Source: Dictyostelium discoideum (taxonomy: Eukaryota). From it: a stretch of 64,000 nucleotides of DNA. Below the pieces are notes generated by a model. That model was not told the origin of the DNA. It ran no database searches and was given only the letters and a program-made list of their open reading frames with translations. Positions 54,175 to 56,320 of the stretch are shown here, one piece after another; position 1 is the stretch's first letter; every line of letters starts with the position of its first letter. Location of the stretch: positions 4,288,001-4,352,000 of the forward strand of contig CM000151.3 in NCBI GenBank assembly GCA_000004695.1. Direction: 5' to 3'. A program made the position numbers and the translations under genes.

Positions 54175-56320
54175 TCAATGATTAAGGTAAGATTTCTTTG
54201 CATTTGTAAAATCGTCAAATGCATTCCAGAATTCAACTTGTGCTGTGTGATCTAAATGTCTTTTAGATTTACTTATCTATAAATAAAAAAATAAATTAAT
54301 ATTATTAAAAATAAAATTATTATTACTTTTTTTTTTTTTTTAAAAAAAATTTAAATTTTAACATACATGTAATACTTTAACATCCCAAGATTTGACGACA
54401 TCAGGTAGATTTGAATCATCAAATTTAACATAAAAACCTCTGATATTTGCAAATAAATCAGCAGGATTACTCCATTTCCAATCTTTAAATTGCCAAGCTT
54501 CACCTTGAACAAATGCAGCCACCACTCTATACCAATCTTCAGGTTTTAAACTTTTAATATTATCAATAACTTCATATGTAACTTTTTGAGTTGTAATTCT
54601 ATCAAATGTAATCATTGGTGGTTTGATTATATTTTGTGATGCCATCTCTTGTTTCTTTTCTAATGTAGGTCTAAACAAACTATGTTGTAAAAATTCTAAA
54701 ACATTATATAATGAAATTGTTGCTGTTAATGATGATGGTACAATAATAATTGGAGTTCCTTTTTTTTAAAAAAAAATTAAAAATTAAAAATTAATAATTG
54801 TAATTTATAATAATAATATTAATAATAATAATAATAATAATAATAATAATAATAATAATAATAATAATAATAATAATAATAATAATAATAATAATAATAA
54901 TAATAATAATAATAATAATAATAATAATAATAATAATAATAATAAAACATTTAAATATTTACTGTTTTTTAAATGTGGAATAATTGATGGACTTCCATTT
55001 GGTGATGATTTAACATTTGGTGATGATAATAATGATGACGATGATGATGATGATGATGATCTTTTTCTTTTCTTTTCTTCTTCATCTTCAATTTTAAACT
55101 TTTTATAATTTGTTAAAATATTTGCAAATGACTAAATTATAAAATAAAAAAAATATTAGAATACTTTGAGGATTATGATAAATAAAGATGAATGAATGAA
55201 TGAATGAATGATTTAATAAAATAGGAAAAACATACAACTGAACTTTGTAAAACTGAAACTTTATCAGAAGATTTCTTTTCTCTATTATTTATTGCTTTGG
55301 TAACTTCAATATCAGCTTTAATAAATGAAGATCTGTTATCATCAGTTGCCATATTCTTTCTTTTTGTTTTAACTTGTTCGATATAAGTATCTACGGTGAG
55401 TGGTGATTCTGTTTTAATTTTTTTAGTATCTATTTTCTCTGCGAATATAGATTTATCTTTTTGTTGTTGTGCTGTTAATTCTCTATCATGTATTAATAAT
55501 GGATCGATTTTAATTTGATCAGATTTAAATTCATCAAATTCTTGTATTGCCATATCTTGATATTGATCATTATTATCATCTTCTTGTTGTGGTTGTTGTG
55601 GTTGTTGTTGTGTTGATAATCCTAAATCTTGTTGTTGTTGTTGTGTCGATGATTGTTGTTGTTGTTGTTGTTGGTCGATTTGTTCTTGTTCTTTTTGAGT
55701 TAAACTACCACCAAATGGTAATTGAGTTGAAGAAGTTGTTTCATCTGATTGTTTTTGTGAATCTTGATCCATTTGTTGAATTGATTGTCCCTCTGGTATT
55801 GTTATTGTATCATCCGCTGTTGAAATACTACCCAACATTGTTGGTGTTGATGTTGGTAACGAATCAAATTGAATCGATGCTGTAATTTCACCACCATCTA
55901 AATAACTTAATAATTCTTTTTTATCATTGCTAAAATTATTTATTTCAATTGATGATAATGATAATGATTATGATTATTGATGATGAAATTAATAATGATA
56001 GGTGTTAAAATACAAATATTATAATATTATATTATATATTATATATATATATATATATATATATATAATTTACATACAAATTTACAGCTTGAATATTACT
56101 TCTTGATGCAGCTAAAATATAAGCACCATGATTTAAAGTACGATTTGAATGTAAAAAATAAACTGAACCCTAATGAATAGTTTGAACCTGTTGAACTTTT
56201 GAATGCTGTTGGTGTGTTTTTATTGAATTTATATCTACCTAATGAATAATCATCTCCTTCAATATTTGGTGTACCTCCTTCCAAGAGTATACCTCTTAAA
56301 ATTGTCAATGGATCCGCCAT
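54175..56320 (-). CDS. cdc73: Cdc73 / parafibromin (Paf1 complex subunit). complement(join(54175..54276, 54367..54758, 54963..55131, 55236..55929, 56078..56320)). The sequence as given needs a 1-nt frame correction inside exon 1 near 56153-56158.
   Basis: The N-terminus is MADPLTILRGIL...YSLGFSLF(F) (compare the human MADVLSVLRQY...[10 protein letters not shown]); after a +1 frame change it continues LHSNRTLNHGAYILAASRSNIQAVN (compare [24 protein letters not shown]). Exon 2 has NDKKELLSYLDGGEITASIQ (KDLLGYLNGEASTSASI). Exon 3 has SFANILTNYKKF (NIFAILQSVK). Exon 4 has RTPIIIVPSSLTATISLYNVLEFLQ (RTPIIIIPAATTSLITMLN) and PEDWYRVVAAFVQGEAWQFKDWKWSNPADLFANIRGFYVKFDD (the C-terminal Ras-like domain). 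The last exon has ISKSKRHLDHTAQVEFWNAFDDF (YHKRHLDRPVFLRFW). Apart from the exon-1 frameshift, all junctions are phase-consistent. Confidence 0.8.
54808..54946. repeat. (AAT)n microsatellite, about 135 bp, within cdc73 intron 3.
   Basis: Perfect aat repeats between the cdc73 exon-3 donor (54962) and the exon-4 acceptor (54759). Confidence 0.9.

Follow-up and report, generated by a model that had tools for sequence, protein, structure and literature searches.

An extra G in exon 1 of cdc73 in the Dictyostelium discoideum AX4 reference, very probably a sequence error, and the misplaced annotation that covers it

Does strain AX4 of Dictyostelium discoideum carry a broken cdc73, the gene for the Paf1-complex subunit parafibromin (HRPT2), or does the break belong to the reference sequence only? 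The question is raised by a stretch of 64,000 nucleotides of chromosome 2 (chr2), here called the window (NCBI GenBank assembly GCA_000004695.1, contig CM000151.3, positions 4,288,001 to 4,352,000 of the forward strand), within which positions are counted from its first letter and the G+C content is 22%. A first-pass annotation of this DNA had recognised cdc73 on the minus strand, reported one base too many in its first exon, and assigned the excess to a run of six T. Comparison with other genomes places it instead in a run of three G (GGG for GG) at 56168-56170, and the surplus base very probably arose during base calling or assembly of the 2005 Sanger reference and is not a biological feature.

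The cdc73 gene consists of five exons, and all of its introns are canonical (GT..AG). Its best database match is a D. discoideum AX4 protein named 'RNA polymerase II complex component' (EAL70335.2 / XP_644100.3 / UniProt Q555G9; P0001 below). Read literally, the five exons give a coding sequence (CDS) of 1600 nt, that is 3n+1, and frame 0 from the ATG at 56320 runs into a nonsense tail that stops after 74 codons (TAA at 56098-56096). Removal of one base from exon 1 opens an unbroken 532-codon open reading frame (ORF) containing both CDC73_N and CDC73_C, and the remainder of the gene is intact. In these respects the first-pass annotation was accurate: the gene is cdc73, exon 1 holds one base in excess, and the downstream frame continues through a phase-2 donor (exon 1 ending at 56078 with TT/GTATGT) into the second exon, which starts at 55929. 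In the exon 1 alignment, the start and donor of this exon are kept in six genomes.

To locate the surplus base, the DNA of the loci was aligned across exon 1 for seven genomes: the window, a near-identical independent assembly (L006, described below), and five other Dictyostelium genomes, namely those of a diverged wild D. discoideum (L001), D. cf. discoideum, D. citrinum, D. dimigraforme and D. firmibasis. Only one indel occurs in the exon. At this point the window has TTAGGGT, L006 has TTAGGT and the five others have TTGGGT (TCATT-GGGTTC in its aligned form), the G-run site as a whole being TCATTAGGGTTC in the window, TCATTAGGTTC in L006 and TCATTGGGTTC in the five. The first alignment had allowed the difference to be written as an inserted A (TTA-GGG vs TT-GGG), a description that was dropped in favour of an extra G once L006 gave TTAGGT. 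The T6 run is present as first described (plus-strand A6 at 56153-56158), starting 9 bases beyond the end of the G run, and it is six bases long in 7/7 genomes. Since the window and L006 differ within cdc73 by one G and nothing else, and the T6 run is invariant, the spurious base is a G of the run at 56168-56170. The leading suspicion of the first-pass annotation, a run-length error, was right in kind; the run in question is GGG vs GG and not T6.

The reading frames lead to the same site. Homology in frame 0 ends right after TTA (L50), and the +1 frame of the window has an in-frame TAG directly before GGT, encoding the GSVYFLHSNRTLNHGAYILAASRSNIQAVN of the relatives from GGT onward. This confines the switch of frame to AGGG (56171-56168) on sequence grounds alone. 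In each of the six other genomes exon 1 is encoded in a single frame: the proteins of the five other Dictyostelium genomes read ...SNYSLG-SVYFLHSNR[TS]LNHGAYILA..., and the string S-L-G-S-V-Y-F-L-H is found in L006 as well as in these five.

Protein homology distinguishes between the possible repairs. Residues 1-166 of each were scored against the Pfam domain CDC73_N (PF16050), which has a cutoff of 27 bits. Reduction of GGG to GG gives 51.1 bits, deletion of one T from the T6 run (T5) 47.4 bits, and the annotated patch at 56130, discussed below, 37.7 bits; removal of a 52-nt GT..AG 'micro-intron' (56163-56112) gives 22.5 bits, which is under the cutoff, and the literal 74-aa product has no match. 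The full-length GG-repaired protein scores 54.9 bits with CDC73_N and 167.5 bits with CDC73_C (PF05179, Ras-like), the latter spanning profile positions 1-158 of 158 at residues 367-522. It thus resembles Cdc73/parafibromin in having CDC73_N together with a full-length CDC73_C, and its sole peculiarity is a Q/S-rich central region, which is typical for Dictyostelium. The repaired N-terminus also aligns with the N-terminal domain of human parafibromin (PDB 5yde; E = 1.2e-9, HMMER). In this alignment the human DSILFLL is paired with GSVYFLH, the aligned Dictyostelium stretch being YSLGSVYFLHSNRTLNHGAYI, so that the earlier match of 'GFSLF' to the human 'DSILF' was fortuitous. At the same position AVYLCH, SVYLCH or AVHFFY is found in more distant dictyostelids, and the dictyostelid orthologues all have [SA]V[YH][FL] after Leu-x at the site of the lesion. 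A literature search on Dictyostelium cdc73 or the Paf1 complex found no experimental paper on Dictyostelium cdc73.

The assembly that is most informative for this question, L006 (GCA_054883475.1, JBTAPE010000033.1), was reached by looking up the neighbouring 512-aa lipase gene. Compared with positions 45288-58835 of the window (13.5 kb) it is 99.76% identical, with 22 blocks of difference, about half of which reflect a differing length of long poly-A/T or microsatellite tracts; the wild D. discoideum L001 is only ~89% identical to the window at this locus. For L006 and the related loci retrieved, the GCA and JBTAP accessions and the ACTF* locus tags fall into one narrow series, and the species are those of Holland et al. 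2025 (PNAS, PMC12745789; PRJNA1300491), who assembled nine wild isolates 'genetically diverged from AX4' de novo from Nanopore + Illumina data. The same work includes the laboratory strain AX2-214 (79x), the only strain there that is not diverged from AX4 (Holland et al. 2025). From the accession series and the species list we infer that L006 belongs to PRJNA1300491. Given its near-identity to AX4, the ~89% identity of L001, and AX2-214 being the sole non-diverged strain of the project, L006 is taken to be AX2-214, an assignment that comes from near-identity and the strain list and not from the record. AX2 and AX3/AX4 are independent derivatives of the isolate NC4. With such separate descent GG would be ancestral, and GGG would be either an error in the reference or a mutation private to AX3/AX4.

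The cdc73 model annotated on L006 (2510-4981) has exon 1 in frame and encodes 603 aa, with no Pfam match on record. It runs ~320 nt beyond the TGA of the AX4 model, into an (AAT)n tract, and its 3' end is probably mis-annotated.

The break in the frame is already known, having been recognised by curators, patched at the wrong place and placed on a published list of suspected genome errors. When the C at 56130 is skipped and the five exons are joined, P0001 is obtained residue for residue, which no other single-base skip in exon 1 achieves. This means that an impossible 'intron' of 1 bp is built into the deposited model. Singh et al. 2017 (BMC Genomics, PMC5282741, Additional file 3) provide a supplementary GFF of introns of <5 bp in dictyBase-curated models, and it holds the entry chr2:4344129-4344131, minus strand, 1 bp, Parent DDB0267069. 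The entry maps onto 56130 of the window, as 4,344,130 - 56,130 = 4,288,000 = 67 x 64,000; eleven 1-bp entries on the minus strand of chr2 were candidates, and a fit to a whole multiple of the window length would arise by chance with odds of ~2 in 10,000. According to the same authors the 119 tiny introns, distributed over 102 genes, are without exception artificial compensation for errors in the genome sequence and not genuine, and for two genes, clcD and DDB_G0279477, this was proved by RNA-seq (Singh et al. 2017, PMC5282741). The cdc73 gap is a listed case and, like the others, keeps a conserved ORF in frame over a suspected error; it differs in that the paper does not discuss cdc73 singly or state the error site, which is located here. 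Likewise, clcD (DDB_G0278639) and DDB_G0279477 each have a single-base discrepancy of the Sanger reference hidden by a curator-made intron of 1-2 bp, but there the errors were shown by RNA-seq reads, whereas the evidence for cdc73 is comparative (a near-identical assembly, five further genomes and protein homology).

The patch lies 38-40 nt downstream of the G-run lesion. As a result of this displacement residues 52-64 of the deposited protein (XP_644100.3 / Q555G9) are translated in the wrong frame, and 12 of these 13 residues are wrong relative to the GG repair: the deposited protein has FSLFFTFKSYFKY where the relatives have SVYFLHSNRTLNH. A gap set away from the true site suggests that the curators worked by homology and had no complementary DNA (cDNA) over the site, in which case the annotation would be uninformative about the AX4 mRNA.

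If the surplus G is an error of the reference, then exon 1 of the AX4 sequence would carry a single spurious base (GGG for GG), and the real gene would encode a normal Cdc73/parafibromin of 532 residues (...SNYSLG-SVYFLHSNRTLNH-GAYILA...), with no recoding mechanism needed. The dictyBase curators would have seen the broken frame and restored it with their artificial 1-bp 'intron' at 56130. The comparisons show directly where the extra base lies, that the six other genomes lack it, and what the patch is; AX4 itself would, by inference, have GG. The alternative of most weight, itself unlikely, is a real mutation that occurred in the lineage of AX3/AX4, or in the clone that was sequenced, following the split from NC4 and AX2. 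The strain would then make a 74-residue fragment and, at best, also an N-terminally truncated Cdc73, reinitiated at M112, that keeps the C-terminal domain. The extra base does stand in the deposited reference, and loss of the gene could be tolerated; yeast cdc73 deletion mutants are viable, and the first-pass description of the gene as essential does not fit this. Against a mutation speaks the rate of 2.9e-11 per site per generation (Saxer et al. 2012), at which a handful would be expected genome-wide, while discrepancies of the reference run into thousands. In the same study AX4-derived lines had 1,916 candidate differences from the reference in common, and these were put down to reference errors or differences between clones (Saxer et al. 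2012). Set against that rate, such discrepancies must overwhelmingly be reference errors or clone differences and not new mutations. Moreover, tiny introns that were set by curators and are ascribed to genome errors occur in at least 102 genes, cdc73 included. Within the 13.5 kb shared with L006, three discrepancies have a confidently alignable outgroup (58374/3, 56170 and 53276), and in 3/3 the window is the odd one out, the outgroup agreeing with L006. This is orders of magnitude above what real mutation would produce between two laboratory descendants of one isolate, and far too many for mutations of the lineage. A hidden second copy of cdc73 is unlikely, as chr2 4.34 Mb lies outside what we take to be the extent of the AX3/AX4 duplication (roughly 2.25-3.77 Mb).

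Several points count against calling the extra G an error. A very recent real mutation would also leave the downstream exons and their ORF intact, and the look-ups yielded no AX4 reads, transcripts or AX4-haplotype contigs over exon 1 that could contradict the extra base. Exact look-ups of the 74-aa ORF, the exon-2 genomic ORF, P0001, the repaired 532-aa protein, the 95-aa ORF and the product from M112 to the end returned no contigs. Five Logan contigs (~1.7 kb) cover only the neighbouring lipase gene, are of another haplotype and do not reach cdc73. The misplaced gap, suggestive of curators without cDNA over the site, leaves the annotation silent on the AX4 mRNA, and the identity of L006 as AX2-214 is itself deduced. 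A literature search for a new long-read AX4 reference found none. Homologue searches with the N-terminal 166 aa and with the 95-aa genomic exon-1 ORF gave no matches, which is a word-index effect and not evidence of absence; full-length orthologues with identical N-termini are present in the database searched.

Two further explanations carry next to no probability. The one proposed by the first-pass annotation, that the excess lies within T6 and the run should be T5, has in its favour that deletion of one T also yields a 532-codon ORF with the correct downstream frame and a CDC73_N score above the cutoff. The exon 1 alignments refute it: the run has six T in every genome aligned, the 99.76%-identical L006 among them, and the actual indel sits in the G run. 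The protein so repaired reads G-F-S-L-F-L-H against the G-S-V-Y-F-L-H of the relatives, making residues 52-54 wrong (F-S-L in place of the S-V-Y or A-V-Y of all relatives), and its CDC73_N score is lower than that of the GG repair. Just as improbable is a genuine frameshift that is bypassed in expression, by programmed +1 ribosomal frameshifting, by transcriptional slippage at UUU UUU A, or by splicing out the 52-nt candidate intron. The U6 tract in frame 0 could in principle let a P-site Phe-tRNA slip by +1, and removal of the 52-nt stretch, which has GT and AG ends, restores the frame (515 aa). That stretch, however, is conserved coding sequence, encoding SVYFLHSNRTLNHGAYILA in every relative, and its loss takes CDC73_N below the cutoff; it was rejected as an intron for these reasons. 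Published analysis counts such constructs in the D. discoideum genome as artefacts (Singh et al. 2017, PMC5282741). With regard to recoding, none of the relatives is frameshifted at the site, so there is nothing conserved to programme, and L006 encodes the protein in one frame. Programmed +1 ribosomal frameshifting is known in antizyme, in yeast EST3/ABP140 and in Euplotes, and cdc73 shares with these cases a one-base excess in a conserved ORF with a slippery-looking U-run close by. It differs in that the shift is absent from all relatives, including the 99.76%-identical strain, and that neither a shift site nor a stimulator is conserved; a programmed shift was rejected on this account, the six other genomes using one frame. 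An error in the reference therefore remains the preferred explanation of the extra G.

Table 1. Features of the cdc73 locus and its downstream neighbours (window coordinates unless stated otherwise)
Feature	Coordinates	Strand	Remarks
G-run of 3 (plus-strand CCC), lesion	56168..56170 = chr2:4,344,168-4,344,170	-	exon 1 alignments
T6 run (plus-strand AAAAAA)	56153..56158	-	not the frameshift site; TAT TTT TTA = Y54 F55 L56 in the true frame
Base skipped by the deposited AX4 model (C)	56130 = chr2:4344129-4344131 entry, Parent DDB0267069	-	dictyBase-curated, length 1
Premature TAA	56096..56098	-	ends the 74-codon frame-0 ORF from ATG 56320
Candidate 52-nt intron, rejected	56112..56163	-	GTTTAT...TTTTAG; removal also restores the frame
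Exon 1 as in the window	56078..56320	-	243 nt, one base in excess; ATG 56320, donor TT/GTATGT after 56078
Intron 1	55930..56077	-	GTATGT...TTTTAG, holds a (TA)n repeat
Exon 2	55236..55929	-	spliced translation = deposited AX4 protein P0001 except residues 52-64
Exon 3	54963..55131	-	splicing and match to P0001
Exon 4	54367..54758	-	CDC73_C domain begins here
Exon 5	54175..54276	-	stop TGA 54177-54175
Lipase_3 array	46242-47810, 48031-49566, 51292-52830; L006 9262-13539	- (window)	intronless paralogues

Long (TTA)n/(AAT)n microsatellites occur in intron 3 of cdc73 (54800-54950) and in its 3' flank (53850-54090), where the window and L006 differ by one AAT unit (position 53959); these tracts probably explain why the short-read Logan contigs break around the gene. 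Directly downstream of cdc73, at least three or four Lipase_3 (PF01764) paralogues, all without introns and about 511-522 aa long, are arranged in tandem. The five Logan contigs mentioned above (L007-L011; SRR26869258, SRR26869267, SRR26869268, SRR28564540, SRR28564542) correspond to 51167-52965 and encode the identical lipase protein. Against both AX4 and L006 they show a 9-nt deletion past the stop codon and four substitutions, of which two lie in the coding region and are synonymous, and they therefore represent another D. discoideum haplotype. Within the spacer that separates two of the tandem Lipase_3 paralogues, ~10 clustered substitutions and a 1-nt indel outside homopolymers (50128) separate the window from L006 (49626-50419); gene conversion, local misassembly and low-quality sequence in one of the assemblies are all candidate causes. 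At the intergenic position 53276 the reference is again the odd one out, with T against the C of both L006 and wild strain L001. On the other side of cdc73, the dinucleotide at 58373-58374 is GT on the plus strand of the window and TC in L006 and L001. It lies in the C-terminal tail of a neighbouring gene for a thioredoxin-domain (PDI-like) protein, directly preceding a region of proline, threonine and histidine runs, and is probably another discrepancy of the reference, causing a missense change.

Should AX3/AX4 or the reference clone carry the extra G after all, which seems a shade less probable even than the mutation as such, AX4 would differ from AX2 in being either null for cdc73 or, through re-initiation at M112, a hypomorph with a truncated N-terminus. 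There would then be a hidden difference in the transcription-elongation machinery between standard laboratory strains, AX4 being the most widely used reference strain of Dictyostelium. As an error in the reference, the finding has little biological weight, since the conserved Paf1-complex gene only looks disrupted, through a discrepancy of the artefact type that curators had already covered. Its yield is practical: the spurious G is placed at chr2:4,344,168-4,344,170, neither in T6 nor at 56130, and residues 52-64 of XP_644100.3 / Q555G9 should read SVYFLHSNRTLNH in place of FSLFFTFKSYFKY. The correction bears on N-terminal constructs, CRISPR guides and peptide searches for cdc73, and the case demonstrates that curated tiny introns can lie tens of bases away from the actual error.

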